Shown: positions 7,110 to 37,016 of the stretch, piece after piece
Position numbering within the stretch: position 1 is the first letter of the stretch
Layout of the letters: every line of letters starts with the position of its first letter
NCBI GenBank assembly: GCA_041661365.1
Contig: JBAZUN010000002.1
Location: forward strand, 1-41,815
DNA length: 41,815 bases
Direction of reading: 5' to 3'
From: Candidatus Latescibacterota bacterium
Lineage (GTDB): Bacteria; Latescibacterota; UBA2968; UBA8231
Program-made: the position numbers and the translations under genes
Notes under the pieces: generated by a model
What the model was told of the DNA's origin: nothing
What the model saw: only the letters and a program-made list of their open reading frames with translations
The model's database searches: none

Positions 7110-7116
7110 GGCGGGG

Positions 7117-21446: not shown

Positions 21447-21570
21447 ACAGATCAGGCTCGGTCGTGTGTTGCTAGAAGGTGACACCTTTTTCAGGCGTGT
21501 GTGCGGGGGCCACACGGTGGCTATCTTGAAAGGAAGCCGTCTCTGGACGGGTTCCCTGGCATACTTCTTG

Positions 21571-21876
21571 ATGGCCATGGCGCCAGCCGCGATCTTGCCG
21601 CAGATTGCCGAGCTGAGACTCCAAGCCGGGGAGGCCGGCCGCCTCATGGTCTATTTCCCCTACCGCCCCGATCTGGTCGCTCGGATCAAGACCCTCCCTG
21701 GTCGCCGTTGGCATCCGGAGAAGAAATGCTGGAGCCTACCCCATACCTCGGAGAGCCTGGCCCGTCTGCAAGGGCTGTTTTCCAGTCCCCGACCCACCCT
21801 CCAGATTACCCCCCCGCTGCCAGTCCGCTCCAGTACGCCCCCACTTTCTCCGGCAGAACACCTATTCCTGGAGTGA
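21571..21876 (+). pseudogene. stand-alone N-terminal domain of a tyrosine recombinase/integrase; catalytic domain absent
   Basis: RLMVYFPYRPDLVARIKTLPGRRWHPEKKCWSLPHTSESLARLQGLF is the characteristic N-terminal module of one integrase family. No SAM-like or catalytic R..HxxR..Y region follows in any frame, and there is no SD. Confidence 0.5.
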
Positions 21877-23063: not shown

Positions 23064-23333
23064 GGACAGAACGACCTGACCGGTGCTGGGGCCGCAGTAT
23101 CCACAGCGCACTTGCAGCGATAAAACCACCAGCATGGCTGAACCGGACGATCACCGCCAACTGCGGCTGGACCGATCCCGGAGAGATACGGCAGGGAGTT
23201 TGCGTCGTAGAACATGTGTGCGTGGGTGTAAGGGGGACACCCTCTTCGCAGTGACGGGCTCCACGCCCGGCTGACTCCTACGCCAAAACAGATGAAGGGC
23301 TGGAGAGCGTCCGGCTTGGTCGGTCTGGGCCGC

Positions 23334-24836
23334 TCACCCGCCGATCGGTTCCCCCGGATCAGGCCGGTCGACGAAGTGCCGGATCAGACGGTCGGTGGCG
23401 GCATGGGGACGCGGGTCCACGTGCCGGGGCAACTGGTCGTAGATGGGGTAGACCCGCTGCCAGTACCGCTGCCGCAGACCGTCGTAATCCGGGCTCGGAC
23501 CGGAGAGCGCGGAGAACAGCTCGGCGAAGAACAGCAGCTCCTCGCGGTACTCGGGCACCGTGGGATGGAAGGGCACGGCCTGGCCGGCCTCGGGATGCAG
23601 GTCGCGCAGGCACTCCGCCAACCGGGTGAGTTGGCAATGATACTCGCCCCGGGTCAGCTCGATCCGGGTGCAGTTCCCCCAGTCGGGGATCGCCTCGAAG
23701 AGGGGGAGCAGGGGCACCAGCTCGCGGCCGGCCCGGCCGAAGAGCCGCTCGTAGAAGCCGCTGGCCAACCCCTCGGAATCGGCGTCCGGGTCGAGGAAGG
23801 ACTGGGCCGCCTCGTAGAGCGAGAGCTGGTTGAGCCGCGGGGTCATGGTGAAGCAGATCCCGCCCTGGTACGGGGCGGCCGCGCGCTCGCGCCGGCGCTG
23901 GGCGAACAGCCGCGCGAAACGATAATGCGGCACGACGGCGTTCTCCCCCTCGGTGAGGCTGAAGTCCCAGGTGCGGATCGGCCGCTGGCGCGCGATCTCG
24001 TTGGCCCAGGGGATGGCGTTGGCCTCGCCCGCGGGATCGCTGTTCCCGTTGAACCCGAGATTGATCGAGACCACGGTCCGGTCGGGGAAGTCGGGCAGGC
24101 GACGCAGCAGGTGCTGCATCGAGCGGTCGGCCCGCTCGCGGCTGAAGTCCCAGGCCGTGTGCTGGTACTCGGGGATGAACTCGCCCTGCCAACCCTCCGG
24201 GTACTGGAGGTTCCCCCAGCCGAAGAAGGGCGGTCCCCAGGTGCCGAGCTCGATCTCGGCTTGCGGCAGGTTGCAGCGGATGAGCCCGGCGATCTCGGCC
24301 GAGCGGTCGATGTAGGTCTCGGCGGTGCACCCGTTGCGGCTGCAGGCCCCGGGGTCGCCGGGGAAGATGGCCACCCCGTCGACGATCTCGAAGCGGCGGG
24401 TCCAGGCATCCCACAGGTGCCGGACCTCGGCCCACTCCTCAGGCAGGTTAGGGCACAGGGTCCGCCAGTCCGGGCCGACCGTGGCCAGGGCCGTCAGGAG
24501 GATGGTCCGCACCCCGTGCTCGTGACCGTGAGCCGCCACCGCGGTCATCTGGCGGTGGAACTCGCGGCCGGCCTCGGACTCCATCCCCTCGCGGAAGAAC
24601 AGCCTGGGCTCGAGCCAGAGCTCGAAGGCGTTGAAGCCGAAGCCGGCGATCATCTCGATCAGCCGGAACCAGTCCTCGTCGGTCCAGCGATGCGGCAGCC
24701 CCGGGTAGTACATGTTCGGGTTGTACCCGTTAAGCAGGTGGGCCGCGAAGTTGTTGTAGTAGATCCGCTGCTCGCCGAAGTGCGGAGCCCTCGAATCCAT
24801 AGGTTGATCCATCGACTGATTCATAGACCGGTCCAT
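23334..24836 (-). CDS. hypothetical 500-aa protein, possibly TIM-barrel glycosidase-like; last gene of the operon
   Basis: WTDEDWFRLIEMIAGFGFNAFELWLEPRLF and later beta/alpha-like alternation. No signal peptide. Start ambiguous: four in-frame ATGs in the first 13 codons and no SD. Confidence 0.7.
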   Translation of the reverse strand: MDRSMNQSMDQPMDSRAPHFGEQRIYYNNFAAHLLNGYNPNMYYPGLPHRWTDEDWFRLIEMIAGFGFNAFELWLEPRLFFREGMESEAGREFHRQMTAVAAHGHEHGVRTILLTALATVGPDWRTLCPNLPEEWAEVRHLWDAWTRRFEIVDGVAIFPGDPGACSRNGCTAETYIDRSAEIAGLIRCNLPQAEIELGTWGPPFFGWGNLQYPEGWQGEFIPEYQHTAWDFSRERADRSMQHLLRRLPDFPDRTVVSINLGFNGNSDPAGEANAIPWANEIARQRPIRTWDFSLTEGENAVVPHYRFARLFAQRRRERAAAPYQGGICFTMTPRLNQLSLYEAAQSFLDPDADSEGLASGFYERLFGRAGRELVPLLPLFEAIPDWGNCTRIELTRGEYHCQLTRLAECLRDLHPEAGQAVPFHPTVPEYREELLFFAELFSALSGPSPDYDGLRQRYWQRVYPIYDQLPRHVDPRPHAATDRLIRHFVDRPDPGEPIGG

Positions 24837-24851
24837 CGAGAGGAGAAAGTC

Positions 24852-26603
24852 TCAGAGGGTCAGCCGGTAGAGGGTGGTGCCGCCGGCCACGTAGACCTCG
24901 CCCGCCGGGGTGACGGCCATGGTGTTCACCTGTCCCGGCAGCTCGCCGGCAAAAACCCGCGTGCCACTCAGCGGATCGAGCAGCCACAACTGACTGCCGC
25001 AGAACAGGGCCGCCTGCCCCGAGGGCAGGGCCGCCAGGTAGTGGCAGGGGGTTTCCAGCTCCACGGCCCGCTCGAAGCGGAGCTGCGCGGGGTCGAAGAT
25101 CTCGATGCGCTGATCCACGGACAGGGCCACCTTGCCGTTGACCGCGGCCACGCCCTTGAGCGCCACGCCGACCGGGAACTGGTGCTTCCAGACCAGGCGC
25201 CCCTCGGGACTCCAGACCCCGAAATGCAGCGGCTCTTCCTTGGCCGGCAGGCCGTTGGCCCCGCCGCTGGTGATGAAGTAGAGATACTGCCGGTCCGCGG
25301 CCAGACCGACGATGGCCTGGGCCGGCATCGGGTCGTACCAGCTCGTCATCTCCAGGGTGCGGCTGTCGATGCGGGAGAGCCCGCCGCCGTAGGTGCCGTA
25401 CCGGGCCATCCAGCCGGTCCAGAAGTGGCCGTCCGGTCCGACCACGCTGCGACCGGCCGGCCGGATCAGCTCTGGCCCCACCGGCTGCAGGGTGCGGGGG
25501 TTGAGGTTGTTGATCTGGTCCCAGGGCTGGGTCGGGTCGTAGACCACGTGGTCGCCGCCCGAGTAGCAGGCCAGGAAGAGCCGGCCGTCGATCTCGGCCA
25601 GGCCGTAGACCTCGCCGCCGTTGTTGCAGACCACCTGGGAGTTCCACGGCTCAGCCGCGGCCGGGTCGTGGCAGAAGATGGTCTGGCCGAACCCGGCCGG
25701 GCCCCAGATGCGACCGGCCGCGTCGGCGATGATGGTGAGGATGTGGGTGGCCGGCCTGGGCGCGGGAATCGGCTGGAGCAGGGGCGCGACCTCGCTGCCG
25801 TCGTCGAGGTAGTACTCCTGCCCCCGGGTGGCCAGGGCGCGGCCGTCGGCCAGGCCGATGGAGAAGCTCATCCCCGAGTACCGGGCCGGTCGACCAGCCG
25901 GAGTCAAGCGGCCGCTGAGGTCGCCCTCCAGGTGCTCGAGCGTGTGCAGGTCGTAGAAGTCCAGCTCACTGCCGGTCTGCAGGCAGAGGAAGTCCTTGTT
26001 GATCTCCTTGACCGAGGCCCCGGGTCGGCCGAAGCGGCGCCAGGTGCGGCTCTCCATGGACCACAATGACAGGTGGGACTCGGCCGAGCCGCAGGAGATC
26101 AGGATATGCCCCGGGATACCACCGTAGACCAGGCGGCTGTACATGTTGTCCGGGTGGTCCGAGACCCGGCCCAGGTTTTCCAGGGTGCGGCGCTCGGGGT
26201 CGTACCGCAGGAGCACGCACCCGGGCCAGGTACCGCCGTAGACCAGACCGTCGGACCCCAGGCAGAGGTTCCAGATGTACTGCTCCCGCTCGTCGCGCAG
26301 CGGGGCGTCCCACTGCCGTGTGGCCAGGTCGAGGGAGTGCAGGTACCCGTACTGGCCGCAGGTGCCGATGAGGAGCCGCTCGTCGCGCCAGTTGAGCACG
26401 GCCCAGGCCCCGTTGTCGCCGGGCAGGTCCAGGGCCTCGCCGGTTCCGGTGGCCGGGTCGACGAGGACGATGCTGCCGATGGCGCCGGAGGCGAAGTTCG
26501 ACAGCACCACCTTCTCGCGATCACCGTCGCGCGGGTCGTTGAGCTTGGCGATGCCGAGGATCTGGAAGTTGCGGCAGGGCTGACCGATTGGCTGGCAGTT
26601 CAC
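24852..26603 (-). CDS. cytoplasmic beta-propeller repeat protein (583 aa), function unknown
   Basis: Many blade-like repeats (LVYGGTWPGCVLLRYDP, GRIWGPAGFGQTIFCHDP, GRLFLACYSGGDHVVYDP, YLYFITSGG, EVYVAGGTTLYRL). GTG start with GAGG upstream. No signal peptide. Confidence 0.75.
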   Translation of the reverse strand: MNCQPIGQPCRNFQILGIAKLNDPRDGDREKVVLSNFASGAIGSIVLVDPATGTGEALDLPGDNGAWAVLNWRDERLLIGTCGQYGYLHSLDLATRQWDAPLRDEREQYIWNLCLGSDGLVYGGTWPGCVLLRYDPERRTLENLGRVSDHPDNMYSRLVYGGIPGHILISCGSAESHLSLWSMESRTWRRFGRPGASVKEINKDFLCLQTGSELDFYDLHTLEHLEGDLSGRLTPAGRPARYSGMSFSIGLADGRALATRGQEYYLDDGSEVAPLLQPIPAPRPATHILTIIADAAGRIWGPAGFGQTIFCHDPAAAEPWNSQVVCNNGGEVYGLAEIDGRLFLACYSGGDHVVYDPTQPWDQINNLNPRTLQPVGPELIRPAGRSVVGPDGHFWTGWMARYGTYGGGLSRIDSRTLEMTSWYDPMPAQAIVGLAADRQYLYFITSGGANGLPAKEEPLHFGVWSPEGRLVWKHQFPVGVALKGVAAVNGKVALSVDQRIEIFDPAQLRFERAVELETPCHYLAALPSGQAALFCGSQLWLLDPLSGTRVFAGELPGQVNTMAVTPAGEVYVAGGTTLYRLTL

Positions 26604-26643
26604 CGGGCAGTTACCTCGGGTGAAGGGTGAAACGGTCCCGGGC

Positions 26644-27438
26644 CTAGAAATCTCGAGTGTATCCGGCGGTCCAGCCGCCGTCGACCGGCAGCACCGCGCC
26701 GTTGACGTAGCTGGCCTCGGGCGAGACCAGGAAGAGCACGGCGTGGGCGATCTCCGCCGGTTCGCCCGGCCGGCCGAGCGGCACGTGGGCCAGCATGGCC
26801 TGGGCCTTCTCGCTGTAGCTGCCGCCCGGACCGTAGAACAGGGCCCGGGTGCCGGCCGTCAGGGTGGAGCCCGGCGCCACGCAGTTGGTCAGGATCCCGT
26901 GCGGTCCCAGTTCGAGGGCCATGGAGCGGGTGAGGTTGACCACCCCGGCCTTGGCCGCGACGTACCCCGACTGCAGGCGCAACGGCACCAGGCCGGCGAT
27001 CGAGGCGATGTTGACGATCCGGCCGGAGGGCTGGCGCAGGATGGCCGGGATCACCGCCTTGCTGACCGTGAAGACGCCGGTCAGGTCGACCTGGATGATC
27101 CGGTTCCAGTCCTCGGTGGAGTACTCGTGGATCGGCTTCCGGTTGCCGCTGGTGTTGATCCCGGCGTTGTTGACCAGGATGTCGATCCGCGACCAGCGCG
27201 CGAGGATCTCGGCCACCACCGCTTCCATGCGAGCCGCGTCGGTCACGTTGGCGGTCCAGGCCGCGGCCTGCTGTCCCGCGGCCGTCACCTCGGCTGCAGC
27301 CTTGGCCGCGGCATCGCCGTCGAGGTCGAGGATGGCCACGAGAGCCCCGTTGGCCGCCAGGTCGTCGACGATCGCCCGGCCGATCCCGTTCCCGCCGCCG
27401 GTCACCACGGCCACCTGGTTCTTCAGGTCGACTTGCAT
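26644..27438 (-). CDS. SDR family oxidoreductase (FabG/KduD-like)
   Basis: VTGGGNGIGRA (TGxxxGxG), NNAGI, YVAAKAG (YxxxK). Confidence 0.9.
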   Translation of the reverse strand: MQVDLKNQVAVVTGGGNGIGRAIVDDLAANGALVAILDLDGDAAAKAAAEVTAAGQQAAAWTANVTDAARMEAVVAEILARWSRIDILVNNAGINTSGNRKPIHEYSTEDWNRIIQVDLTGVFTVSKAVIPAILRQPSGRIVNIASIAGLVPLRLQSGYVAAKAGVVNLTRSMALELGPHGILTNCVAPGSTLTAGTRALFYGPGGSYSEKAQAMLAHVPLGRPGEPAEIAHAVLFLVSPEASYVNGAVLPVDGGWTAGYTRDF

Positions 27439-27441
27439 GGC

Positions 27442-27891
27442 TCATCCCTCGCTTTCGACCAGCTCGAGGCTGATCGGCGTGAGCTGGCGCAGGTTGTCGG
27501 AGACTGGGCAGCGCGCGTCCACCTCGTGGAGAAAGGCGCGCTTCTGCTCGGCCGTCAGGTCAGCGTCGATGCGGGCCTGCACGGTGATCCCGGTGAAACC
27601 GGCCCGGGCGTCGCGGGACTTGCCCAGCAGCACGTCGACGTCGAGGTCACCGGCCACGGTCACCTCGAGACCGCGCAGGGCGATCTTCTGCTGGTGGGCC
27701 GCGATCCGGGCGATCGAGGCGATGCACCCGGCCAGGCTGCAGAAGAGGAGCTCGAGCGGGGTCGGACCGGTGTCGGTGCCGCCCTGATTTTTGGGCTGAT
27801 CGATGCAGACCAGGTGGTCGCGGACGCGGCTCTCGATCCGCATCCCCGCTCCCAGGGTGGCGCTGACCCGCACTTCCTTGACGGTGGCCAT
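27442..27891 (-). CDS. OsmC/Ohr family protein
   Basis: PTPLELLFCSLAGC and ARCPVSDNL, the two conserved Cys contexts of OsmC. Confidence 0.85.
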   Translation of the reverse strand: MATVKEVRVSATLGAGMRIESRVRDHLVCIDQPKNQGGTDTGPTPLELLFCSLAGCIASIARIAAHQQKIALRGLEVTVAGDLDVDVLLGKSRDARAGFTGITVQARIDADLTAEQKRAFLHEVDARCPVSDNLRQLTPISLELVESEG

Positions 27892-27909
27892 GGTTCCTCC
27901 TTTCGGGAT

Positions 27910-28584
27910 TCAGACGGCGGATCGCCGCGCCGCGGCGATGGTGACCAGCAGTTGCTCGGCGGCGGCCTGGAGGTCGGCCATGCGACCTTCCTCGTACGCC
28001 GGCGTGGCCAGCCCGTTGGCCAGCACGGTGACGACGCTGGCGCCGGCGCGGATGTAGTCGCCCACGTTCCCCAGGTTGATCCCGCCGGCCGCCATCAGCC
28101 GCACCCCGGGGAAGGGACCGACGACCTCGGCGAAGAAGCCCGGCCCCACGGCCGAGGCCGGGAAGACCTTGATGACGTCGGCCCCGGCCCGCAGGGCCAG
28201 CATGATCTCGGTCGGCGTGACCGCCCCGACGACGCTGACCACGCCGAGCCGGCGGCAGGCGGCCACCACCTCGGGGCAGAACCCCGGGCCGGCGATGAAG
28301 GAGGCACCGGCCTGCACGGCCAGCTCCACGGTGCCGGGGTCCATCACCGTGCCGGCCCCGACCGCGCAGCCGGCCGACAGCTCGGAGGCGGCCCGGTGCA
28401 CCAGGGCCAGGGCGTCGGGCATGGTCAGGGTGTATTCGATGCAGGAGATCCCGGCCTCGCAGTAGGCCTGACTGGCCGCCATCAGGTGGTCTAGCTGGTG
28501 GGTGCGGAAGACCGGTAGCAGGCCCGGGCCGCACATCCGCTCGATCAGCTCCTCGCGCTCCATCGGTTTCTCTCTTCTCTTCAT
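27910..28584 (-). CDS. KDPG/KHG (Eda-type) class I aldolase family protein
   Basis: IEYTLTMPDA, GAGTV, DVIKVFPA (Schiff-base Lys context), MAAGGI. An alternative ATG start exists at 28563. Confidence 0.85.
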   Translation of the reverse strand: MKRREKPMEREELIERMCGPGLLPVFRTHQLDHLMAASQAYCEAGISCIEYTLTMPDALALVHRAASELSAGCAVGAGTVMDPGTVELAVQAGASFIAGPGFCPEVVAACRRLGVVSVVGAVTPTEIMLALRAGADVIKVFPASAVGPGFFAEVVGPFPGVRLMAAGGINLGNVGDYIRAGASVVTVLANGLATPAYEEGRMADLQAAAEQLLVTIAAARRSAV

Positions 28585-28599
28585 TCGTGTTGTTCGTGT

Positions 28600-29799
28600 C
28601 TACTGTTCGTGGCAGGCCCGGAACAGGGCCTCGATATTGGGCAGCGGGATCTCCGGGGTCAAGACGTTCGAGGGGCCCACCAGGTAGGCGTGGTTGCCGG
28701 CCCGGCCCAGCAGGTCCACGGTGTGGCGCACGGCGGCGCGCACCTGGGCCGGGGTCTGCCGCGCGATCTCCTGGTCGCTCAGACCGCCGCAAAGGGCCAC
28801 CCGGCCGCCGAACTCGCGGGCCAGGGCCGCCAGGTCCATGGCCTCGGGCTGTAGCGGATCGAGTACGTCGATCCCGGCGTCGATCAGGTCGCCGACGATC
28901 GCCGTCACGTTGCCGCAACTGTGGAAGATCACGTCCAGCCCGACCTGGTGGGCCTGGTCGAAGATCCGGCGGTACCGGCCGAGGAAGAACCGTCGCCACA
29001 TCTCCGGGGAGATCATCAGGGCCTGCTGCGTGCCCCAGTCCTCGCTCATGAACAGGCCGTCCACCCCGGGCAGGCGGCCCCAGGCGCGGACGATCTCGAG
29101 GTAGTACTCCGTAAGGGCGTCGAGCAGCCGCTCGCTCTCCCGGGGGTGGAGGCACAGGTCCTCGAGGGTATTCTCGAAGCCCCGCAGGCAGTGCATCCGC
29201 TCGAAGAGCATCAGGTGGGTCATGCCGGCGAAGTACTGCTTGCCGCCGAAGCGTCGGAGGGAGGGGAGGACCCCGTCGAGCCGGCCCGGTAGTCGTGGGT
29301 CCGGCATCCGGGTCAGGTAGGACTCCAGCTCGCTCCAGTCAGGCAGGGGCGCGGCCACGGTCGAGGCGCCTACCCCGCCGGCCGCGTGTCGCCAGCGGGT
29401 GCCCCACTCGTCGGTCCACTCGGCCTCCCGGGTCAGGGCCGCGACCAGGTCCACGGCCTCCGGGTCGTCGGGCCGCTGGTACCCCAGGAAGATGTCGTAC
29501 GGCTGGGCAAAGACCACGTCGTCGGGGTACGCGGCGAACAGCTCGATCAGGGCCTTGCCGTGGCGCAGGATGACGTCGAGGGACAACCGCCGCAGCCGCA
29601 CCGGACAGCGGGGACCGCCGCGCCGGTGCAGGACTTGCTGCACCCAATCGCGACCGGCCGGCTGGGCCTCCATGCCGCGGTTGACCGCCTCGTTGAAGCG
29701 GTCGATGGCGGCCCGGACCTGGGCCGCCGGGAGCGGCGAAGGCTCAGGTATAGGTGCCGAGCCGCAGTCCCTGTTCGACGAAGTACCGGTAGGTGTCAT
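28600..29799 (-). CDS. URO-D superfamily protein, MtaA-like (HSCG motif), paralog B
   Basis: IFHSCGNVTAIVGDLIDAGIDVLDPLQPE core. ATG 29799 overlaps the upstream gene by 56 nt; ATG 29673 (MEAQPAG...) is an alternative start. Confidence 0.75.
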   Translation of the reverse strand: MTPTGTSSNRDCGSAPIPEPSPLPAAQVRAAIDRFNEAVNRGMEAQPAGRDWVQQVLHRRGGPRCPVRLRRLSLDVILRHGKALIELFAAYPDDVVFAQPYDIFLGYQRPDDPEAVDLVAALTREAEWTDEWGTRWRHAAGGVGASTVAAPLPDWSELESYLTRMPDPRLPGRLDGVLPSLRRFGGKQYFAGMTHLMLFERMHCLRGFENTLEDLCLHPRESERLLDALTEYYLEIVRAWGRLPGVDGLFMSEDWGTQQALMISPEMWRRFFLGRYRRIFDQAHQVGLDVIFHSCGNVTAIVGDLIDAGIDVLDPLQPEAMDLAALAREFGGRVALCGGLSDQEIARQTPAQVRAAVRHTVDLLGRAGNHAYLVGPSNVLTPEIPLPNIEALFRACHEQ

Positions 29800-30853
29800 A
29801 GTCCACCTGGTCGGGAACGGAGTGATCGACCTGCAGCACGTACCCGCTGCCGGCCATGGCCGCGGGGACCTTGGCCTCCAGCTCGGCCCGGACCGCGCCC
29901 AGGTCGTTGGTCACCAGCACCCGTGCGTCCATGCCGCCGATCAGGGCCAGCCGGTCGCCGTACTCGCGCTTGAGGCGGACCAGGTCCATGCCGGCCTTGG
30001 CCTCCAGCGGCTGCAGACAGTCGATGCCCGCTTCGAGCAGGGCCGGCAGCAGGGCGAGGATGCGGCCGTCGCTGTGAAGGATGACCTTCAGCCCGCGCTG
30101 GTGGGCAAAGCCGAACAGCCGCCGGTGCGCCGGGAAGATCAGCTCGCGATACATGGCCGGGGACATGAACGGCCCGTTGGCGAACCCCAGGTCGTCCCAC
30201 ACCCACATCCCGTCGGGCAGCCCCTCGCGCGCGAAGAGTATCTCCAGCAGCTCGATGGTCAGCTCTCCGTAGAGATCGGCCATGGTGCGCACCCATTCCG
30301 GGTCCAGGGCCATCCCGGCCAGCAGGTGCTCGTGGCCGCACATCAGGGTCATCAGGTCAAAGGCGCCGACCACCCCACAGGCCAGGAAACGCTGATCCTG
30401 GTCGCATTGCCGGCGGGCCTGCCGGTACAGCTCGAGGTTGATCCGCCTTTCGAGCTGACCACGGTCGCGCAGTCGGGGCTCGAGCTGGTGCTCCCACCCG
30501 GCCCGGTCCCGCACCAGGAAGTCCACGTGCTCGGGTGCGCCCGAGACCCCCTTGGGCCAGCGGAGCACGGCGCCGTTCCCGTCGCGGACCAGGCGGGTGG
30601 TCGCCGTCTCCTCGAGGACCTGCTCCCCGGCGTCCAGGTCGGCGACCAAGTCGAGGAGCTTCCCCGAGATGGAGAGGGCGCCGCTGCTTCGCCTGAGGTC
30701 GAGGTCGAAGTGGTCCTCGATCGCCTCGCCGGGCGGGAGATGACCCTCGGCGGTCCAGCGTCGGGCGGTATCGGCCCAGAAGACCTCGAACAGGCCGATC
30801 CGGTCCACCGGCTCGTGGGCCAGGATCCGGCGGATCCGCTCGCGGCTGGTCAC
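29744..30853 (-). CDS. URO-D superfamily protein, paralog A (HSDG in place of HSCG)
   Basis: RERIRRILAHEPVDRIGLFE N-terminus; ILHSDGRILALLPALLEAGIDCLQPLE core. The GTG start overlaps the Ldh_2 TGA (GTGA). Confidence 0.8.
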   Translation of the reverse strand: MTSRERIRRILAHEPVDRIGLFEVFWADTARRWTAEGHLPPGEAIEDHFDLDLRRSSGALSISGKLLDLVADLDAGEQVLEETATTRLVRDGNGAVLRWPKGVSGAPEHVDFLVRDRAGWEHQLEPRLRDRGQLERRINLELYRQARRQCDQDQRFLACGVVGAFDLMTLMCGHEHLLAGMALDPEWVRTMADLYGELTIELLEILFAREGLPDGMWVWDDLGFANGPFMSPAMYRELIFPAHRRLFGFAHQRGLKVILHSDGRILALLPALLEAGIDCLQPLEAKAGMDLVRLKREYGDRLALIGGMDARVLVTNDLGAVRAELEAKVPAAMAGSGYVLQVDHSVPDQVDYDTYRYFVEQGLRLGTYT

Positions 30854-31917
30854 AGCCAGGCCGGCGCGATCAGGCCCAGGTCGGCCACCAGCCCGCGCAG
30901 GCTGTCGCGCACGTCGGACGGCAGGTCGATCCCCTGCTTCAGGGCCCGCTGCCTGGCCTCCCACTCCTTCTCCCCGGGGAGCCAGATCCGCTCCTGGCCC
31001 TTGGCCTTGGGCGCCTGCCGGATCTCGCGGATCAGGGCATCCATCCGCCGACGGTACTGATCGAGGGGGATGAAAGCCCCCACGTCGAGGGCCAGGAAGG
31101 CGTGCCCGTGGTCGGTGGGCAAGGAGGGGTCGCTGTCGATCCAGCTCCCGATGGCCCCGGTCAGGCTCGCGCCGCTGAGCAGTCCGGAGAGAACCTCGAT
31201 CATCAGGGCCAGGCCGTACCCCTTGTGACCGGCCATCGGGGTCAGCGAGGCCTGGTACGGGTAGAGGTTCGGATCCAGGGTCGGCACCCCCTCGTGGTCG
31301 ACCAGCCAAGTCGCCGGGATCGGCTGATTGAAGGTTGCGGCGATGCGGATCTTCCCCCCGGCCACGGCCGCGGTCGAGACGTCGAGGAGGATCGGTGGCT
31401 CCTCTCCGGCCGGGGCGGCAAAGGCGAACGGGTTGCTCCCCAGGACCGGGCCACGCGAACCGGGCGCGGTGACGCTGGCCGTGTCGCTGGCCATGGCCTG
31501 ACCGACCATCCCGTGATGAACGGCGAGCTGGGCATAGTACCCGGCCGCGCCGAAGTGGCAACTGTTTTTAACCGTGGCAAAGCCGATCCCGCAGGCCTTG
31601 GCCTTGGCGATGGCCGTCTCCATGGCGAAGATCGCGGTGACCATGCCGATGGAGGAGTTGCCGTCGACCACGGCCCAGGCCGGACCCTGGCGGACCACGA
31701 CCGGCCGACCTCGTGGATTAAGACCGCCCCCGCGCAAGCGCCGGGCGTACCCCCGCAGGCTCTTGGTGCCGTGGGTGAACACGCCCCAGGTGTCGGTGGT
31801 GACCAGCACCTCGGTGGCGGTCCGGGCGTCCTCGGGACTCAGGCCGCAGAGGGTGAGGGCCTCGAGGGCCAGCCCTTCCAGGGCCGCGACCGGGACGGGA
31901 CCGGACTTCGCATCCAT
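30850..31917 (-). CDS. Ldh_2 family dehydrogenase (malate / L-sulfolactate / ureidoglycolate / diketogulonate reductase family)
   Basis: GVFTHGTKSLRGYARRL, NSCHFGAAGYYA, GSNPFAFAAP, AGHKGYGLALMIEVLSG. Confidence 0.85.
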   Translation of the reverse strand: MDAKSGPVPVAALEGLALEALTLCGLSPEDARTATEVLVTTDTWGVFTHGTKSLRGYARRLRGGGLNPRGRPVVVRQGPAWAVVDGNSSIGMVTAIFAMETAIAKAKACGIGFATVKNSCHFGAAGYYAQLAVHHGMVGQAMASDTASVTAPGSRGPVLGSNPFAFAAPAGEEPPILLDVSTAAVAGGKIRIAATFNQPIPATWLVDHEGVPTLDPNLYPYQASLTPMAGHKGYGLALMIEVLSGLLSGASLTGAIGSWIDSDPSLPTDHGHAFLALDVGAFIPLDQYRRRMDALIREIRQAPKAKGQERIWLPGEKEWEARQRALKQGIDLPSDVRDSLRGLVADLGLIAPAWL

Positions 31918-31950
31918 CGCGTTGATGTCCTTCTCGAAATCACCAACAAC

Positions 31951-32925
31951 TCAGACGACGCCGTTGACCACGTTGACCGCCGGCTCGTCCCTCAGGGCCC
32001 GGGCCACGGCCTGGGCCGCGCTGGTCCGCAGGGCACGCACGGCCTGCACCGTGGCCGAGGCCACGTGGGACGAGACCACCACCTGGTCCAGGCTCCGTAG
32101 CGGGTGGTCCTTCGGCAGGGGCTCGGGACTGGTCACGTCGAGCGCGGCGCCGGCGATCCGGCCGCTGTTCAGCGCGGCCACCAGGTCGTCGGTGATCACC
32201 AGGTCGCCCCGGCTGGCGTTGACCAGCAGCACCCCGGGCTTCATCCGGCTGATGGCCTGGGCGTCGATCATCCCGCGGGTCTGGGGCGTGCTGGGGCAGT
32301 GCAGGGAGACCAGGTCGCTTTCGGCCAGCAGTTGGTCCAGAGCCACCGGCTCGGCCCCGGCCTGCTGAATCGCCTTGGCCGGGACCAGGGGATCGTGCAC
32401 CAGCAGGCGGCACTTGTGCGGCCGGAGCCGGGCCGCCACCTCCCGGCCGATCCGGCCGAAGGCCACCAGCCCCACGGTCATGTACTTGAGGGCGCGCAGT
32501 TGCTCCAGGGAGCCGGCCAAGCCCCAGCCGCCGCCGCGGAAGAGCAGGTGTCCGGGCACGACCTGCCGCACCAGGGTCAGGATCAGGGCCAGGGTGTGGT
32601 CAGCCACCTCGTCGATGCAGTAGTCCGGGACGTTGCAGACCGGGATGCGGCGCTCGGCCGCCGCGGTCAGGTCGACGTTGTCCACGCCGATCCCGTACCG
32701 GACGATGACCCGGCACTGCTTCATGGCGGCGATGGCCTGGGCCTTGACCGGGGCGAACTGGGTCAGCACCGCGTCGGCGTCAGCGACCAGCGTCGCGACC
32801 TCGGCCTCGGTGCGGCACTGGGCCGGCACCAACCGGCAGCCCAAGGGACTGAGTACCTCCTCCTCCAGGTCGAACGGCCCGAAGGTGGCATCGGTGATGG
32901 CGACCTTCCACGTCGGCTTGTTCAT
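31951..32925 (-). CDS. D-isomer-specific 2-hydroxyacid dehydrogenase family protein
   Basis: VGLVAFGRIGREVA (NAD fold), LVNASRGDLV, AALDV, SSHVAS (R/E/H triad contexts). The ATG overlaps the E2 TGA (ATGA). Confidence 0.85.
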   Translation of the reverse strand: MNKPTWKVAITDATFGPFDLEEEVLSPLGCRLVPAQCRTEAEVATLVADADAVLTQFAPVKAQAIAAMKQCRVIVRYGIGVDNVDLTAAAERRIPVCNVPDYCIDEVADHTLALILTLVRQVVPGHLLFRGGGWGLAGSLEQLRALKYMTVGLVAFGRIGREVAARLRPHKCRLLVHDPLVPAKAIQQAGAEPVALDQLLAESDLVSLHCPSTPQTRGMIDAQAISRMKPGVLLVNASRGDLVITDDLVAALNSGRIAGAALDVTSPEPLPKDHPLRSLDQVVVSSHVASATVQAVRALRTSAAQAVARALRDEPAVNVVNGVV

Positions 32926-34166
32926 GGGATCAACCTCGCTCCAGGGTTCTCGACCAGGACCCGGACCCGCTCCAGGAAGCGGGCCGCCGGGCCGCCGTCG
33001 ACGATGCGGTGATCGAAGGTCAGGCTTAGCCAGAGCCGGTCGCGCGGCACCACCGCGTCCCCCACCACCGCGGCCTGCCGGGTGATGCGGCCCACCCCGA
33101 GGATGGCGCACTCCGGGGCATTGATGATCGGGGTGAAGGCATCGATCCCCATGGGGCCGAGGTTCGACACGGTGAAGGTGCCGCCGCCCATCTCCTCGCT
33201 GGCCAGTCGCCGGCTGCGGGCCCGGTCGATCAGGTCGCGCGAGCGGGCCGCCACCTCGCGCAGGGTCAGGCCCGGCACGTCGCGGATCACCGGCACCACC
33301 AGGCCGGCCTCGGTGTCGACCGCGACCCCGACGTGGATCCCGCCGCAGAGCACGATCCGCTCGCCGGTCCACCGCGAGTTGAGCTGCGGGTGCTCGGCCA
33401 GGGCCACCGCGACCAGCTTGATCAGGATGTCGGTGAAGCTGGGCAGCGGCTCGCCGTCGGTCGCCAGGGCCTTGAGCTGGGTCCGCAGGCTGACCAGGTG
33501 GGTGGCGTCGGCCTGGACCATCAGGGTGACCGCGGCCGTGGCGGTCTGGCTCTGCATCATCTTCTCGGCGATCATCCGTCGGGCCGTACTAACCGGCACC
33601 TCGCGGTCCGGCGACGCGGTGAAGCGACGACCATCCGCGGGTACAACCGGGGAGCCGCCACCTGCAGTCGCTGCGGCGCGGACGTCCCGCTCGCGGATCC
33701 GGCCGGACCTGCCCGAGCCGGTCACCACGGCCAAGTCCACGCTTAGCTCCGCGGCCAGGCGGGCTGCCCGGGGCGAGACCGGAACCGTTGGTCGGATCGT
33801 GGGTGCTGGCCCTAAGGCAACCGGTTCGGTCGCGGTCGTGCCGCCGGCAGCAGGAGCTCCCTCTGCCTCGCTCGGTTCCGCGGCAGGACGGACCGGGAGC
33901 GGACCGGCGGGCGGCTCTTCACCGGCCGCGAGCAGGTACCCCAGCACCTGACCGACCGGGATCATGTCCCCTTCGGCCGGACTGCCGGGCGGGATGCACA
34001 GCAGGCCGCTGTCCGTGGCCTCGACCTCCTGCACCGCCTTCTCGGTCTCCAGGGAGAAGAGCGGCTCCCCGGCCTTGACCTGCTCGCCGTCCTGCTTGAG
34101 CCACTGGACAAAGACCCCCTCGTCCATGGACCAACCCAGGCGGGGGAGCGTGATCTCGATGGCCAT
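32922..34166 (-). CDS. 2-oxoacid dehydrogenase complex E2 (dihydrolipoyl acyltransferase)
   Basis: Lipoyl domain (LFSLETEKAVQEVEA), E3/E1-binding domain (PRAARLAAELSVDLAVVTGSGRSGRIRERDV), catalytic FDHRIVDGGPAARFL. AGGAAG RBS. Confidence 0.9.
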   Translation of the reverse strand: MAIEITLPRLGWSMDEGVFVQWLKQDGEQVKAGEPLFSLETEKAVQEVEATDSGLLCIPPGSPAEGDMIPVGQVLGYLLAAGEEPPAGPLPVRPAAEPSEAEGAPAAGGTTATEPVALGPAPTIRPTVPVSPRAARLAAELSVDLAVVTGSGRSGRIRERDVRAAATAGGGSPVVPADGRRFTASPDREVPVSTARRMIAEKMMQSQTATAAVTLMVQADATHLVSLRTQLKALATDGEPLPSFTDILIKLVAVALAEHPQLNSRWTGERIVLCGGIHVGVAVDTEAGLVVPVIRDVPGLTLREVAARSRDLIDRARSRRLASEEMGGGTFTVSNLGPMGIDAFTPIINAPECAILGVGRITRQAAVVGDAVVPRDRLWLSLTFDHRIVDGGPAARFLERVRVLVENPGARLIP

Positions 34167-34176
34167 ATCCCTTCCT

Positions 34177-36186
34177 CTACTCGTCAAGCAGGTCGCGCAC
34201 GGCCTGGGCGATGCGTTGCGGGCTCGGGGTCACCAGGGCTTCCAGCGGCGGGCTGTAGGGGGTGGGCACGTGAGCCCCGTGCAGCCGCCGCACTGGCGCG
34301 TCCAGCTCGTCGAAGCCGGATTCGGCCACCCGGCCGACGATCTCGCTGGCGAATCCGAACGGCCCGAAGTCCTCGTCGACCACCAGCAGGCGGCCGGTGC
34401 GGCCGACCGAGGCCAGGATCGTCTCCAGGTCCAGGGGCGCCACGGTCCGCGGGTCGATCAGCTCCACCTCGATCCCCTCGCGGGCCAACTCCTCGCTGGC
34501 CTGCAGGCTGTGGTGGACCATCAGGGCCAGAGCCACCACGGTGATGTCCCGGCCCGGGCGGACCACGCGCGCCCGGCCGAACTCGATCTCGTAGTCGTCC
34601 TCGGGCACCGGCCCCTTCACCCCCATCAGCTCCCGGTGCTCGAGGAAGAGGACCGGGTCCCGGCCGCGCAGGGCCCGGGTGAACAGCCCCTTGGCATCGT
34701 ACGGGGTGGACGGCACCGCGACCAAGAGCCCGGGGAAGTGGCCGTACATCGCGTAGTAGCTCCCCGAGTGGTGGGTGGCGGCCGAGTGACCGATGCCGAT
34801 GCAGCCGCGCAGCAGCACCGGCATGGCCAGCCGGCCGTTGCTGAGGAACTGGATCTTGGCGATCTGGTTGACCACCTCGCCCACCCCGTCGAGGATGAAG
34901 TCGGCGAACATGAAATCGACCACCGGCCGGGTCCCGGTCATGGCCGCGCCGCCGGCCAGGCCGACGAACCCCCGCTCGCAGATCGGGGTGTCGCAGAGCC
35001 GCACCGGACCGTACAGGTCGTACAGTCCGGTGGTGGTGGCGAAGTTTCCGCCCCGCTTGCCGATCCCCTCGCCCAGGACGAAGATCCCGGGGTCAGCGGC
35101 CATGGCCGCGACCAGGGCCTCGTGGGTGGCCTTGGTGTAGGAGATCTCGCGGCCGGTCTCGGGCGCCGGCGGCTCGGGCAGCGGGACCGCCTCGCTCACC
35201 ACGTGCTGGGCCAGGCGGTCCGGCTCGGGCCACGACTCAGATTCGGCGAAGCGCTGGGCCTCCTCGACCCGAGCCTGGATATTGGTCGTGATCGCCTCCA
35301 GCTCCTCGGGCTTGGCCAGCCCTGCTTCAAGCAGGTGGGTGCGCAACCGGGAGATCGGGCAGCGGGCCTTCCAACCTTCGACCTCCTCGCGGGTGCGGTA
35401 GGTGTAGTCGCCCATCCCTTCGGCGTGCGGCCGGGTGCGGTAGGTGACGCACTCGAGCAGGGTGGCCCCCTCGCCGGCCCGAGCCCGGGCCACGGCCTCG
35501 CCGGCGGCCCGGTGCACCGCCACCACGTCGTTCCCGTCCACCTGCACCCCGGGCAGACCGTAGGCCGCGGCGCGGGCCGCGATATTTGGATTGCCGGCCG
35601 AATAGGAGATCGGCACCTCGGTGGCGAACTGGTTGTTCTCGCAGACGAAGAGGACCGGGAGCTTCCAGATGCTGGCCATGTTGAGGCCCTCGTGGAAGGC
35701 CCCGTTGTTGGCGGCACCGTCGCCGAAGAAGGCCACGGCCACCCCGCCGTCCTGCCGCAGCTTGAAGGAGTACCCCCCGCCGGTCGCCTGCAGGATGCAC
35801 GGCCCGACGATCCCGCTGGTCCCCATCAGGCCGATCTCGGGGGCGAAGAGGTGCATGCTGCCGCCGCGACCGCCCGAGCACCCCGAGGCGCGGCCGAACA
35901 GCTCGGCAAAGAGCCGGCGCGGGTCCAGGCCCTTGGCCAGGGCATGGCCGTGCCCCCGATGGGTGCTGAAGACCACGTCCCGGGCGCTCAGGTGGGCGCA
36001 GACCCCGGTGGCGACCGCCTCTTCCCCTACATAGGTATGGCAGGCGCCGTGGACCAGGCCCCGCCCGTGGGCCCGGGCCAGTTGCTCCTCGCACTGCCGG
36101 ACCAGCACCATGGTGCGGTAGAGCGTCAGCAGGCCTTCCCGGTCGGGTTCGGCCCCTGCCGCGGACCGCTTCCTCTGCTTGCCCAT
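34177..36186 (-). CDS. fused E1 alpha-beta thiamine-diphosphate-dependent 2-oxoacid/acetoin-type dehydrogenase component
   Basis: Alpha part with GDGAANNGAFHEGLNMASIWKLPVLFVCENN (GDG-X-NN TPP motif). P/E-rich linker. Beta part (FVLGEGIGKRGGNFATTTGL...DTPICERGF...). ATG 36186 follows a GAGGGGGA. Confidence 0.9.
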   Translation of the reverse strand: MGKQRKRSAAGAEPDREGLLTLYRTMVLVRQCEEQLARAHGRGLVHGACHTYVGEEAVATGVCAHLSARDVVFSTHRGHGHALAKGLDPRRLFAELFGRASGCSGGRGGSMHLFAPEIGLMGTSGIVGPCILQATGGGYSFKLRQDGGVAVAFFGDGAANNGAFHEGLNMASIWKLPVLFVCENNQFATEVPISYSAGNPNIAARAAAYGLPGVQVDGNDVVAVHRAAGEAVARARAGEGATLLECVTYRTRPHAEGMGDYTYRTREEVEGWKARCPISRLRTHLLEAGLAKPEELEAITTNIQARVEEAQRFAESESWPEPDRLAQHVVSEAVPLPEPPAPETGREISYTKATHEALVAAMAADPGIFVLGEGIGKRGGNFATTTGLYDLYGPVRLCDTPICERGFVGLAGGAAMTGTRPVVDFMFADFILDGVGEVVNQIAKIQFLSNGRLAMPVLLRGCIGIGHSAATHHSGSYYAMYGHFPGLLVAVPSTPYDAKGLFTRALRGRDPVLFLEHRELMGVKGPVPEDDYEIEFGRARVVRPGRDITVVALALMVHHSLQASEELAREGIEVELIDPRTVAPLDLETILASVGRTGRLLVVDEDFGPFGFASEIVGRVAESGFDELDAPVRRLHGAHVPTPYSPPLEALVTPSPQRIAQAVRDLLDE

Positions 36187-36198
36187 CCGATCCCCCTC

Positions 36199-36236
36199 TT
36201 GACAATCATCATATGATCTGATGAAAATACTGTCAA
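36199..36236. promoter_or_regulatory. overlapping divergent promoters with a central palindrome (candidate GntR operator)
   Basis: Minus strand: TTGACA (36236-36231), 17-nt spacer, TATGAT (36213-36208). Plus strand: TTGACA (36199-36204), 18-nt spacer, GAAAAT (36223-36228). Perfect palindrome ATCATATGAT at 36208-36217. This is an AT-rich island in GC-rich DNA. Confidence 0.65.
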
Positions 36237-36332
36237 AGAAATTCTCCGGCAAGACTCCGGCGCCAGGTGATCCAGCCGCACCGGTGGCCGGAGCCGCTCC
36301 TGGCCTCGGCGCAGGGGCAGGTGGAGGACGAG

Positions 36333-37016
36333 ATGGAGCCGACGGTTCCCCGGCAGACCCTGGGCGAGGTGGTGGTGACCCGGGTCAAGCAGCTCATCGT
36401 GGACCAGGGACTCCAGCCAGGAGACCGTCTGCCCACCGAGCAGGAGCTGGCCGTGCGCTTCGGGGTCTCGCGGCTGAGCGTGCGCGAGGCTACCCGCACC
36501 CTGAACTTCCTGGGGATCATCCGCGCCGCCCCCCGCCGCGGCCTGACCGTGGGCGAATTCGACGTGACCCGGATCGCCGAGATCCTGGGGTACCACCATG
36601 CCCTGGTCCGGTACCCCGGCCGCCAGCTCGTGCAGGCCCGGCTGGTCATCGAGGTCGGCGCCCTGCCGTTCGCCGCCGAGCGATTGGCCGGCGAGCCCGA
36701 GCTGCGCGAGCATCTCCTGGAGCTGGCCGCGCGCACCGAGGATGAGACCTTGCCCGAGGCGTTCATCGAGGGGGAGATCGCCTTTCACCGGGCCCTGGTC
36801 GAGACCAGTGGGATCGGGCCGCTGGTGCTCTTCAGCGACATCCTGCACGCCTTCTTCCGGCGGTTCCAGGAGACCGTGGTGGCCCACCGGCACGACGAGG
36901 GGGTGAGGCAGCATTGCCAGCTCGTCGAGCTGCTAGGACGCGGCCGACTGGCTAAGGCCGAGGCCGTGCTGCGGGGCCATCTCCAGGCCTTCCTGGCCGC
37001 CGAGCAGGAAGGGTGA
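36333..37016 (+). CDS. GntR family (FadR-like C-terminal domain) transcriptional regulator
   Basis: PGDRLPTEQELAVRFGVSRLSVREATRTLNFLGII winged-HTH region and an all-helical C-terminal domain. GGAGGACGAG precedes the ATG. Confidence 0.9.
   Translation: MEPTVPRQTLGEVVVTRVKQLIVDQGLQPGDRLPTEQELAVRFGVSRLSVREATRTLNFLGIIRAAPRRGLTVGEFDVTRIAEILGYHHALVRYPGRQLVQARLVIEVGALPFAAERLAGEPELREHLLELAARTEDETLPEAFIEGEIAFHRALVETSGIGPLVLFSDILHAFFRRFQETVVAHRHDEGVRQHCQLVELLGRGRLAKAEAVLRGHLQAFLAAEQEG

Follow-up and report, generated by a model that had tools for sequence, protein, structure and literature searches.

The window considered here (the whole stretch of DNA that was analysed) is a complete 41,815-bp contig of a Candidatus Latescibacterota metagenome-assembled genome (MAG) with a G+C content of approximately 70%, and its principal feature is an operon of eleven minus-strand open reading frames (ORFs), g1 to g11, that are packed head to tail as one tight unit from 36186 to 23334. 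The operon lies behind a promoter that faces a divergent GntR-type regulator gene, and it encodes 2-oxoacid and 2-hydroxyacid dehydrogenases, a pair of proteins of the URO-D (uroporphyrinogen decarboxylase) superfamily, an aldolase, an OsmC-like protein, a short-chain dehydrogenase/reductase (SDR) and two products without a Pfam family, of which the last is predicted to resemble a glycoside hydrolase (GH). The coordinates of these features are collected in Table 1. A preliminary description of this DNA had listed the eleven genes, named their families and judged the mix of enzymes to be one that maps to no described pathway; all eleven ORFs were found where it had placed them, Pfam confirmed each named family, and the enzymes neither reach equivalog cut-offs nor match a pathway in the open-access literature.

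Table 1. Features of the eleven-gene operon, its control region and the divergent transcription unit, in window coordinates.
Feature	Position	Strand	Assignment	Basis
g1	34177-36186	-	Fused E1 alpha-beta, 669 aa	Pfam E1_dh, Transket_pyr and Transketolase_C
g2	32922-34166	-	E2 dihydrolipoyl acyltransferase	Pfam lipoyl, E3-binding and 2-oxoacid_dh catalytic domains; NCBIfam
g3	31951-32925	-	D-isomer-specific 2-hydroxyacid dehydrogenase (2-HADH)	Pfam 2-Hacid_dh; 2-Hacid_dh_C 2e-54
g4	30850-31917	-	Ldh_2 family (type 2 malate/L-lactate/sulfolactate/ureidoglycolate dehydrogenase)	Pfam Ldh_2 3e-109
g5	29744-30853	-	URO-D superfamily, subfamily A; GTG start	Pfam URO-D 2.3e-19, C-terminal part only
g6	28600-29799	-	URO-D superfamily, subfamily B	Pfam URO-D 2.5e-24
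g7	27910-28584	-	Eda-type class I aldolase (2-keto-3-deoxy-6-phosphogluconate/2-keto-4-hydroxyglutarate, KDPG/KHG; T. maritima-like subtype)	PF01081 1.2e-31
g8	27442-27891	-	OsmC-like, putative thiol- or lipoyl-dependent peroxidase	Pfam OsmC 6.5e-19
g9	26644-27438	-	Classical SDR oxidoreductase	Pfam adh_short 6e-60
g10	24852-26603	-	583-aa beta-propeller, Pfam-less family	Sub-threshold Kelch, SGL and Reg_prop matches only
g11	23334-24836	-	488-500 aa, Pfam-less	Predicted GH-like TIM barrel with C-terminal helical domain
Promoter/operator region	36199-36236	-		Promoter scan (11/12 match), inverted repeat
GntR/FadR-subfamily regulator	36267-37016	+	GntR and FCD domains	Pfam GntR 1.5e-15 (57 bits), FCD 1e-13 (52 bits), both above the gathering score
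LamG-like gene	37133-37738	+	Laminin_G_3/concanavalin-like protein; in the window only	Pfam 3.1e-13
u414	37761-39005	+	414 aa, Pfam-less, probable remote URO-D-superfamily member	hhalign
SGNH/GDSL esterase	38998-39708	+	Last recognisable gene of the divergent unit	Pfam Lipase_GDSL_2 1.6e-31

The junctions from g1/g2 through g5/g6 are, in order, a gap of 10 nt, a 4-nt overlap (ATGA, 32922-32925, joining the g2 stop to the g3 start), a gap of 33 nt, a second 4-nt overlap (GTGA, 30850-30853, g4 stop and g5 start) and a 56-nt overlap, and those from g6/g7 through g10/g11 are gaps of 15, 18, 3, 40 and 15 nt. The gaps of at most 40 nt and the two short overlaps described previously were thus borne out, while the 56-nt overlap of g5 and g6 had been missed; a corresponding overlap is called in relatives, at 56 nt in locus L167 and at 29 nt in the contig carrying P0243. 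An ORF in another frame that is longer than g9 (26600-27445) was rejected as spurious. As had been proposed, Pfam and NCBIfam revealed no E3, kinase, transporter or member of a known dehydratase family in the operon, nor a recognised lactonase, and none of its products has a signal peptide-like N-terminus on inspection by eye, no predictor having been used. Pfam scans found no E3 in the 41.8-kb window as a whole, which likewise contains no PfkB gene and, by Rfam, no RNA element.

The operon promoter, TTGACA-17-TATGAT (11/12 match), has its -35 hexamer at 36236-36231 and its -10 hexamer at 36213-36208 on the minus strand, and a plus-strand promoter-like site (36199-36228) lies back to back with it, facing the GntR gene; the scan of this region returned three sites, where chance alone would give 0.7. 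Both hexamers of the operon promoter are embedded in an outer inverted repeat (TTGACA...TGTCAA) and an inner palindrome (36206-36224). Upstream of the E1 gene of locus L007 there is a near-identical 40-nt promoter/operator, TTGACAGTATTTTGGTCAGATGATATGACGATTGTCAAG, in flanking DNA that differs, and this despite the fact that the L007 proteins are only 65-82% identical to those of the window. The regulator combines a winged-helix GntR domain with an FCD ligand-binding domain and is transcribed divergently from the operon, which agrees with the near-consensus promoter facing a GntR/FadR gene that had been described. As such, the regulatory reading, in which a GntR regulator acts at a predicted palindromic operator, is well grounded. 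The GntR/FCD gene is kept in divergent orientation in the contig carrying P0243, where it is followed, at the same position as in the window, by a 414-aa Pfam-less gene and then a GDSL esterase. The divergent GntR transcription unit is therefore conserved alongside the operon, and the locus is larger than the eleven genes to which it had been confined, the LamG-like gene being an addition seen in the window only.

The enzymes of the operon outside the URO-D pair miss every NCBIfam equivalog cut-off. In g1, a single chain carries E1_dh (274.6 bits), Transket_pyr (129) and Transketolase_C (123) domains, and in both NCBIfam and the PDB it is most similar to the alpha and beta subunits of pyruvate dehydrogenase (PDH) E1, with scores below the PDH equivalog cut-offs (342 versus 393.85 for TIGR03182, 311.5 versus 454 for NF008854); g2 is similarly below those of E2 models (242-260 versus 552-722). 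The missing E3 had been listed among the notable absences. It is no anomaly: g2 has a domain for binding E3, and complexes commonly share one E3. The closest PDB entries of g4 are type-2 malate/lactate dehydrogenases and L-sulfolactate dehydrogenase (2X06 being among the top matches), and g4 falls below all NCBIfam cut-offs, including that of the sulfolactate dehydrogenase model NF040650 (208 bits, cut-off 500). The aldolase g7 scores 110 bits against PF01081 (cut-off 27.8) and misses TIGR01182 (eda) with 139.3 bits against 156.05; its best PDB match is the T. maritima KDPG/KHG aldolase, and its translation contains a K-x-F-P segment, which we take to be the Schiff-base lysine site. The SDR g9 is generic by NCBIfam. 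For g3, g4, g7 and g9 the PDB and NCBIfam searches gave generic family matches only, and none of the four was assigned a specific substrate.

Relative to known PDH and branched-chain 2-oxoacid dehydrogenase operons with an E1 of the heterodimeric type, the g1-g2 pair is similar in that E1 has both its alpha and its beta domains, E2 has all three of its domains, and PDH E1 subunits are the closest solved relatives. It differs from them in the fusion of alpha and beta, in the absence of an E3 gene from the operon, in the missed cut-offs and in being embedded within a catabolic operon instead of forming an operon by itself. Related loci contain both fused and split forms of E1.

The least expected products are g5 and g6. 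Members of the URO-D superfamily are known for uroporphyrinogen decarboxylation and for zinc-dependent alkyl transfer to thiols. Both g5 and g6 match the Pfam profile in part only (profile positions 128-341, 70 bits, and 159-345, 86 bits, respectively), the MtaA/CmuA models (TIGR01463, NF040654, NF004889) score only 35-51 bits against cut-offs of 235-400, and the NCBIfam matches of the two proteins at E <= 1e-5 include no HemE model. The AlphaFold2 model of g5 (pLDDT 81) has its best Foldseek matches in HemE and an MtaA-like methyltransferase, at TM scores of 0.65-0.70 and 11-20% identity, with MetE in the list at lower scores; g6 has as its best PDB sequence match the MtaA-like methyltransferase 4AY7. 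As judged from their sequences and from the predicted fold, g5 and g6 are members of the URO-D superfamily that stand outside any characterised family, given the 11-20% identity, the low MtaA scores and the lack of a HemE match.

Clustering separated the URO-D-like proteins into three subfamilies whose mutual identity does not exceed 28%, namely A (g5), B (g6) and C, the last of which is the commonest partner of A elsewhere and is approximately 41% identical to a further window gene at 7609-8760. Common to all three, in g5 numbering, are R18, D52, D214, D221, S231, R236, H260 and D290. They differ at the positions of the zinc ligands of MtaA and MetE. Subfamily A has H-x-D and D-H-S there, together with many invariant arginines; in g5 the motifs are H260-x-D262-G and D343-H344-S, which can be read as H-S-D ... 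D-H-S with Asp in place of the Cys ligands. Subfamily B retains H-S-C and has S-N at the third-ligand position, so that g6 displays the MtaA-type HxC zinc motif as H-S-C-G-N with the third cysteine absent, and subfamily C is the only type with a full H-S-C ... H-C arrangement (H-S-C and V-H-C). A corrinoid-binding motif (DxHxxG...SxL...GG) is absent from the window and occurs in 1 of the 494 ORFs of related loci.

Two other URO-D-like genes bring the window total to four. The divergent gene u414 aligns with the URO-D-like proteins in hhalign (probability 89%, E 2.2e-6, 228 columns), and a homologue of it (35% identity) stands between GH36-like genes beside a g5 homologue in loci L098 and L099. 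The gene at 7609-8760 (+) has an H-S-C-G motif, is 23-26% identical to g5 and g6, and lies between SCO1/SenC (6492-7109) and a cydAB-cydDC cytochrome bd cluster (8845-15057); the ORF that opens at 7132 was considered over-extended, since third-position GC rises only after approximately 7580. The g5 branch itself is large, with 266 clusters (50% identity) at E <= 1e-30 and 3,668 at E <= 1e-10. A tblastn search of plasmid records with g5 returned only three weak, unannotated matches.

A shared function is indicated by the neighbourhoods of g5 homologues. A g5-anchored scan of metagenome contigs yielded 80 loci, with homologues 57-74% identical, and in these the families of the operon recur in shuffled orders: a further URO-D paralogue in 32, SDR in 23, Ldh_2 in 18, 2-HADH and g6-type proteins in 15 each, Eda in 13, and E1 and E2 in 8 each. 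When the count is restricted to the 33 loci whose flanks extend to 6 kb or more and to genes within 6 kb of the g5 homologue, subfamily-C URO-D proteins are found in 19, SDR in 16, 2-HADH in 10, Eda in 8, Ldh_2 in 7 and E1 in 5. In our judgement, this co-occurrence is far above expectation for families usually present in one to few copies per genome. Two loci contain six or seven of the nine core families in an order different from that of the window, L111 with SDR, E1, E2, g5-type, g6-type and Ldh_2 genes in a row, and L132 with OsmC (g8-type), SDR, URO-D, E1, E2, g5-type and 2-HADH genes adjoining. Orthologues of g7 (56-60% identity) stand beside URO-D pairs in four more, with no adjacent kinase: directly after an A+C pair in L127, L128 and L133, and between the two URO-D genes in L153. 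Because the window-type aldolase accompanies the URO-D pairs in this manner, the conserved kernel is URO-D A, URO-D B or C, and an Eda-type aldolase; the g1-g9 core is a real recurrent neighbourhood, and the recurrence of the same families in shuffled orders argues that they are functionally coupled.

The remaining neighbours supply the context. Recurrent among them are GH36/melibiase-like proteins with a twin-arginine translocation (Tat) signal, PfkB kinases, FAH-family hydrolases, DHDPS-family proteins, metallo-beta-lactamase-fold proteins, UxaE-like epimerases, DUF6786, zinc-dependent alcohol dehydrogenases and HpcH aldolases; rarer are GFO_IDH_MocA, GH2, GH127, solute-binding proteins, aldehyde:ferredoxin oxidoreductase, an FGGY kinase, LarA, LUD-domain proteins, iron-dependent alcohol dehydrogenase (Fe-ADH) and aldehyde dehydrogenase (ALDH). 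More distant g5 relatives lie beside DHDPS-family and tripartite ATP-independent periplasmic (TRAP) transporter DctP genes, or directly after ATP-binding cassette (ABC) sugar permeases. One locus, L116, has at least five URO-D-like genes among DHDPS, Eda, PfkB and Ldh_2 genes over approximately 10 kb (1642-11107). This is the vocabulary of sugar and sugar-acid catabolism, and it is on account of the GH36-like, PfkB, FAH, DHDPS, UxaE-like, HpcH, ABC permease and TRAP neighbours that we ascribe a sugar-acid theme to the locus. No ILVD_EDD, enolase-superfamily, UxuA or altronate-type dehydratase was found in the operon or among the 25 top families listed from pooled Pfam scans of the related loci. 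This strengthens the earlier remark that URO-D-like proteins occupy the expected place of a dehydratase or lactonase, as the related loci are again without known dehydratase families.

The complete operon has a far narrower distribution than its core. The full eleven-gene order recurs only in three close relatives (65-82% identity), namely L007, which is filed as Gemmatimonadetes, L167 and the contig carrying P0243; a check of gene-order conservation, suggested previously, therefore succeeds within this narrow lineage, whereas elsewhere the core families are shuffled and g10 and g11 are unlinked. A g10-anchored search of 185,579 species genomes gave 80 loci in as many species genomes (36-78% identity), 79 of which have no other operon gene within 10 kb, L007 being the sole exception. 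As such, g10 was rejected as a marker of the pathway. Its homologues occur in Paenibacillus, Cohnella, Caldilineaceae, Verrucomicrobiota, Clostridia and Chitinophaga, next to sugar ABC permeases and binding proteins, DegT aminotransferases, GFO_IDH_MocA oxidoreductases and AraC regulators. A profile search found no PDB sequence relative of g10, and its SGL match is below threshold (21 bits, cut-off 26.3). In some genomes the family is multi-copy (L019, L068 and the loci of one MAG): Paenibacillus nasutitermitis has two copies within approximately 5 kb with one gene between them, an uncultured Clostridia contig has three consecutive copies, and the MAG Clostridiaceae 8_bin.75 has five such loci (L021, L037, L039, L063, L070). 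In another Latescibacterota MAG, an IS605 OrfB/TnpB-type gene with OrfB_IS605 and Cas12f1-like TNB domains (L008, 3700-4353) lies directly upstream of a g10 homologue.

The last gene, g11 (locus tag WDA75_00330), is publicly called with a start 12 codons later than that of the window ORF. It has no Pfam match even at E = 5 and no PDB sequence relative in a profile search. In its AlphaFold2 model (pLDDT 87.6) a TIM barrel is joined to a helical domain at the C-terminal end, and for this model Foldseek lists GH84, GH138, GH67 and GH20 enzymes at the top with TM scores of about 0.5 and 9-13% identity; g11 is accordingly predicted to be a glycoside-hydrolase-like barrel, a resemblance at the level of the fold, and by sequence it belongs to no described GH family. 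Homologues in Hydrogenedentes, Planctomycetes, Victivallales and Anaerolineae occur in unrelated contexts and are 59-78% identical, an unusually high conservation across several phyla. Four cysteines are invariant in the family (C116, C153, C158 and C316 in the 488-aa numbering), as is the motif FPGDPGxCSRNGCTAETYID, which suggests a metal site or cysteine-based catalysis within a GH-like barrel. Since their homologues elsewhere occur without g1-g9, g10 and g11 are independent, widespread families that have been appended to the operon in this lineage, and the eleven genes are not the single conserved module that the preliminary description had made of them.

Among characterised systems, the closest parallels are the non-phosphorylative pathways for L-fucose, L-rhamnose and pentoses, in which a sugar dehydrogenase, a lactonase and an aldonate dehydratase are followed either by an aldolase or by a 4-dehydrogenase and an FAH-family hydrolase, with pyruvate and lactate, lactaldehyde or glycolate as the products. 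Control of the GntR/FadR type is typical of sugar-acid operons. Like these Entner-Doudoroff (ED)-like pathways, the locus has an SDR, a 2-keto-3-deoxy acid aldolase and downstream 2-hydroxyacid dehydrogenases, and the related loci have FAH, DHDPS/HpcH aldolases, lactonase-like folds, LarA, LUD, Fe-ADH and ALDH. Unlike them, it is without an enolase-superfamily or IlvD/EDD dehydratase and without a recognised lactonase, the URO-D pairs being constant instead; furthermore, the window aldolase is Eda-type rather than DHDPS/HpcH, and a dedicated PDH-like E1/E2 is attached. By analogy, then, the locus may work like a non-phosphorylative ED-like sugar-acid pathway under GntR control that lacks a known dehydratase. 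The FAH, LarA, LUD, Fe-ADH and ALDH genes of related loci fit lactate/lactaldehyde-type end products, which are seen in 6-deoxyhexose and pentose non-phosphorylative routes.

The comparison with characterised URO-D proteins gives a similar mixture of likeness and difference. The superfamily includes HemE, the MtaA/MtbA/CmuA corrinoid:thiol methyltransferases, MetE and epoxyalkane:CoM (coenzyme M) transferase (PMC10418091). In common with these, the window proteins have the fold, a conserved D-R in the N-terminal part, an Asp of the D221 type and the HxC histidine, and g6 keeps HxCGN. They depart from characterised members in their low identity, in scores far below the HemE and MtaA cut-offs, in the Asp and Asp-His that take the place of Cys in g5, in the lack of a corrinoid partner, and in a genomic context of sugar-acid catabolism rather than tetrapyrrole, methanogenic or methionine metabolism. 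Kountz and Balskus have described type 1 mlp clusters, which encode MtaA-like proteins outside methanogens with >25% identity to characterised CoM methyltransferases and which were described via corrinoid-dependent methyltransferases and linked to methyl-sulfur and methyl-selenide metabolism (PMC10418091). The resemblance is that both concern URO-D-superfamily proteins without a described role that are widespread in bacteria of anoxic habitats; unlike the mlp proteins, however, those of the window are more distant from MtaA, have no corrinoid partners and stand among sugar-acid enzymes. A search of open-access full text found no literature linking URO-D-superfamily proteins to sugar catabolism.

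Taken together, these observations make it likely that the locus serves the catabolism of a carbohydrate-derived acid with the URO-D-like enzymes as integral catalysts. The fuller statement, that it is a GntR(FadR-type)-repressed cytoplasmic catabolic system for such an acid with g1-g9 as its core, has in our estimate about an even chance of being correct, and a specific dehydratase or lyase role for the URO-D-like pair is put forward as a tentative proposal only. Counted in favour are the tight transcription-unit layout behind a strong promoter, the operator that is near-identical in L007, the retention of the GntR/FCD gene, the proximity of E1 to PDH E1, the GH-like fold of g11 and the occurrence of g10 homologues in sugar ABC-transporter operons. 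As a regulated sugar-acid operon with at least three enzyme families that lack a described function, the locus is a well-supported lead towards novel enzymology among abundant uncultured bacteria, its substrate and chemistry being hypothetical.

The following sequence of events is one that we infer, in all of its enzymatic steps, from what was directly observed, that is, from the family assignments, the gene linkage, the regulatory architecture and the conserved operator. A sugar or small glycoside would enter the cell, where the lineage-specific g11 (GH-like TIM barrel) and g10 (propeller) may trim or convert it, and g9 would oxidise or reduce the sugar or sugar acid. The g5 protein, with its His/Asp-type, arginine-rich site, and g6, with its MtaA-like His-x-Cys site, would then work as a pair in the step classically performed by an aldonate dehydratase, or in a comparable lyase or isomerase step, to give a 2-keto-3-deoxy (4-hydroxy-2-oxo) acid. 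We place the URO-D pair at this step because there is no known dehydratase among the listed neighbour families and the URO-D-like pairs are constant. Cleavage of the 2-keto-3-deoxy acid by g7 would provide pyruvate and a C2 or C3 aldehyde or hydroxy-acid, g4 and g3 would turn L- and D-2-hydroxyacids resembling lactate, glycolate or glycerate into 2-oxoacids, and the PDH-like g1 and g2, with an E3 encoded elsewhere, would make acyl-CoA; g8 is perhaps a peroxidase dependent on the lipoyl group of E2. The regulator would bind the palindromic operator over both back-to-back promoters and be released by a pathway intermediate.

We would extend this proposal, with some diffidence, to the URO-D barrels of the A, B, C and u414 types as a whole, which might form a previously unrecognised carbohydrate-acid-converting class whose members act in pairs, A with B or A with C, as a split counterpart of MetE and its two barrels. 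It is conceivable, if rather doubtful, that such pairs perform a dehydratase-, lyase- or etherase-type reaction on a sugar derivative, with a 2-keto-3-deoxy acid as the product or with release of lactate or pyruvate. Equally speculative is the suggestion that they replace Fe-S/enolase-type dehydratases in many uncultured Planctomycetota, Latescibacterota, Chloroflexota and Spirochaetota. That the URO-D pair has in this lineage been combined with two undescribed carbohydrate-active families, the g10 propeller and the g11 GH-like barrel, is a further suggestion for which we would claim no greater likelihood.

Several points weigh against this proposal. No URO-D superfamily member is known to act on sugars, and subfamilies B and C have His-Cys(-Cys) sites of a kind that suggests zinc-based thiol activation rather than Lewis-acid sites for hydroxy-acids. 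The window operon is without a transporter, a kinase or a recognised lactonase. Linkage of g10 and g11 to the core is seen in no other lineage, and the role given to them in the pathway is conjecture. With regard to the neighbourhoods, a rare dehydratase in related loci could have been missed where the top 25 families were listed, SDR and 2-HADH are common families whose co-occurrence could in part be background, and the genes of the related loci were called by a simple in-house ORF picker.

One rival explanation is that the URO-D-like proteins are MtaA/MetE-type zinc methyl- or alkyl-transferases that demodify a sugar, for example an O-methylated sugar or uronate, with the rest of the operon catabolising the product. 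The retention of the MtaA HxC(G) zinc motif by g6 and subfamily C would be explained in this manner, as would the invariant His-Cys of subfamily C at the third-ligand position and the match of g6 to 4AY7; the A+B pair resembles the two-barrel layout of MetE, MetE is also in the Foldseek list of g5, and the fold of g11 resembles, among others, that of GH67 alpha-glucuronidase, which has been solved with 4-O-methylglucuronate. However, g5 has Asp instead of Cys ligands, the MtaA/CmuA scores are a fraction of the cut-offs, the corrinoid-binding motif is confined to a single ORF of the related loci, and there is no recurrent corrinoid protein, activase or pterin methyltransferase; on chemical grounds, moreover, aliphatic methyl ethers are poor substrates for nucleophilic demethylation. 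We consider this explanation unlikely, and a corrinoid-dependent O-demethylase system was rejected as there are no corrinoid proteins. We regard as similarly unlikely that the operon is not one pathway and is instead a lineage-specific mosaic of small co-transcribed modules (the PDH-like E1/E2 with lactate-type dehydrogenases, the URO-D pair with the aldolase, OsmC with SDR, and g10 and g11). The confinement of the full order to three close relatives, the presence of g10 and g11 elsewhere without the rest, and the variable subsets of core families in other loci are all what a mosaic would produce. In contrast, the recurrence of rare families (Ldh_2, Eda, E1/E2, FAH) around g5 homologues in many unrelated contigs is a signature of functional coupling, and the overlaps that join g2-g3, g4-g5 and g5-g6, with the translational coupling they imply, cross the supposed borders between modules.

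A sulfonate route of the sulfolactate or sulfoquinovose type would make g4 a sulfolactate dehydrogenase, g7 a sulfo-ED aldolase and g10 a sulfogluconolactonase. The score of g4 against the L-sulfolactate dehydrogenase model, the presence of 2X06 among its top PDB matches, a SulP-family permease gene 2.4 kb downstream of the operon and the weak SGL-like match of g10 lean in this direction; yet the NF040650 cut-off is missed by far, a 2-kb stretch lies between the operon and the SulP gene, which the syntenic loci lack, and neither the window nor the recurrent families of the related loci include SuyAB, Xsc, a sulfite exporter, an IlvD-type sulfogluconate dehydratase or a sulfolactaldehyde dehydrogenase. 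The sulfo-sugar route that had been entertained thus finds no specific support, and with no desulfonating enzyme we reject it as very improbable. The Ldh_2, DHDPS and KHG aldolase genes would fit hydroxyproline or allantoin routes as well, but the glycoside hydrolase, PfkB and UxaE-like neighbours favour sugars, and these routes were also rejected. A sialic-acid or 3-deoxy-D-manno-octulosonic acid (KDO)-type substrate, which would already be a 2-keto-3-deoxy acid, was considered on the basis of the GntR/FadR regulator, the SGNH esterase, a BNR-like gene in the P0243 relative, and the DHDPS and TRAP neighbours; it is conceivable and has no specific support.

No convincing intrinsic terminator follows g11, and the approximately 2.1 kb beyond it (21170-23330) contain no confidently coding frame; an ORF on the plus strand (21501-23063) has no Pfam match, its third-position GC is only 0.75, and the syntenic loci contain nothing that matches it, having at this position a convergent 477-aa gene and a pirin gene instead. 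A Pfam-less plus-strand ORF cut by the end of the window (40709-41815) shares 33% identity with the convergent 477-aa gene, likewise Pfam-less, found after g11 in L005 and L006, which indicates that this family stays near the locus at a different position. Farther downstream of the operon on the minus strand (16587-20908) are a 679-aa ORF without a Pfam match (16587-18626) and then the SulP permease, fused to STAS and cyclic-nucleotide-binding domains (18686-20908).

If the proposed role of the URO-D-like enzymes is correct, a sizeable and broadly distributed part of the URO-D superfamily acts in carbohydrate catabolism, a function that is absent from databases and from the literature searched, and a type of reaction new to a fold known for decarboxylation and thiol alkylation would have to be added to its repertoire. 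It would also fill the "missing dehydratase" gap in metabolic reconstructions of abundant uncultured bacteria of sediment, peat and freshwater. The locus further draws attention to g10 and g11 as highly conserved, structurally unsolved families that resemble cytoplasmic carbohydrate-active enzymes, and with one regulator, one operator and nine core enzymes it offers a compact system in which these proposals can be tested.

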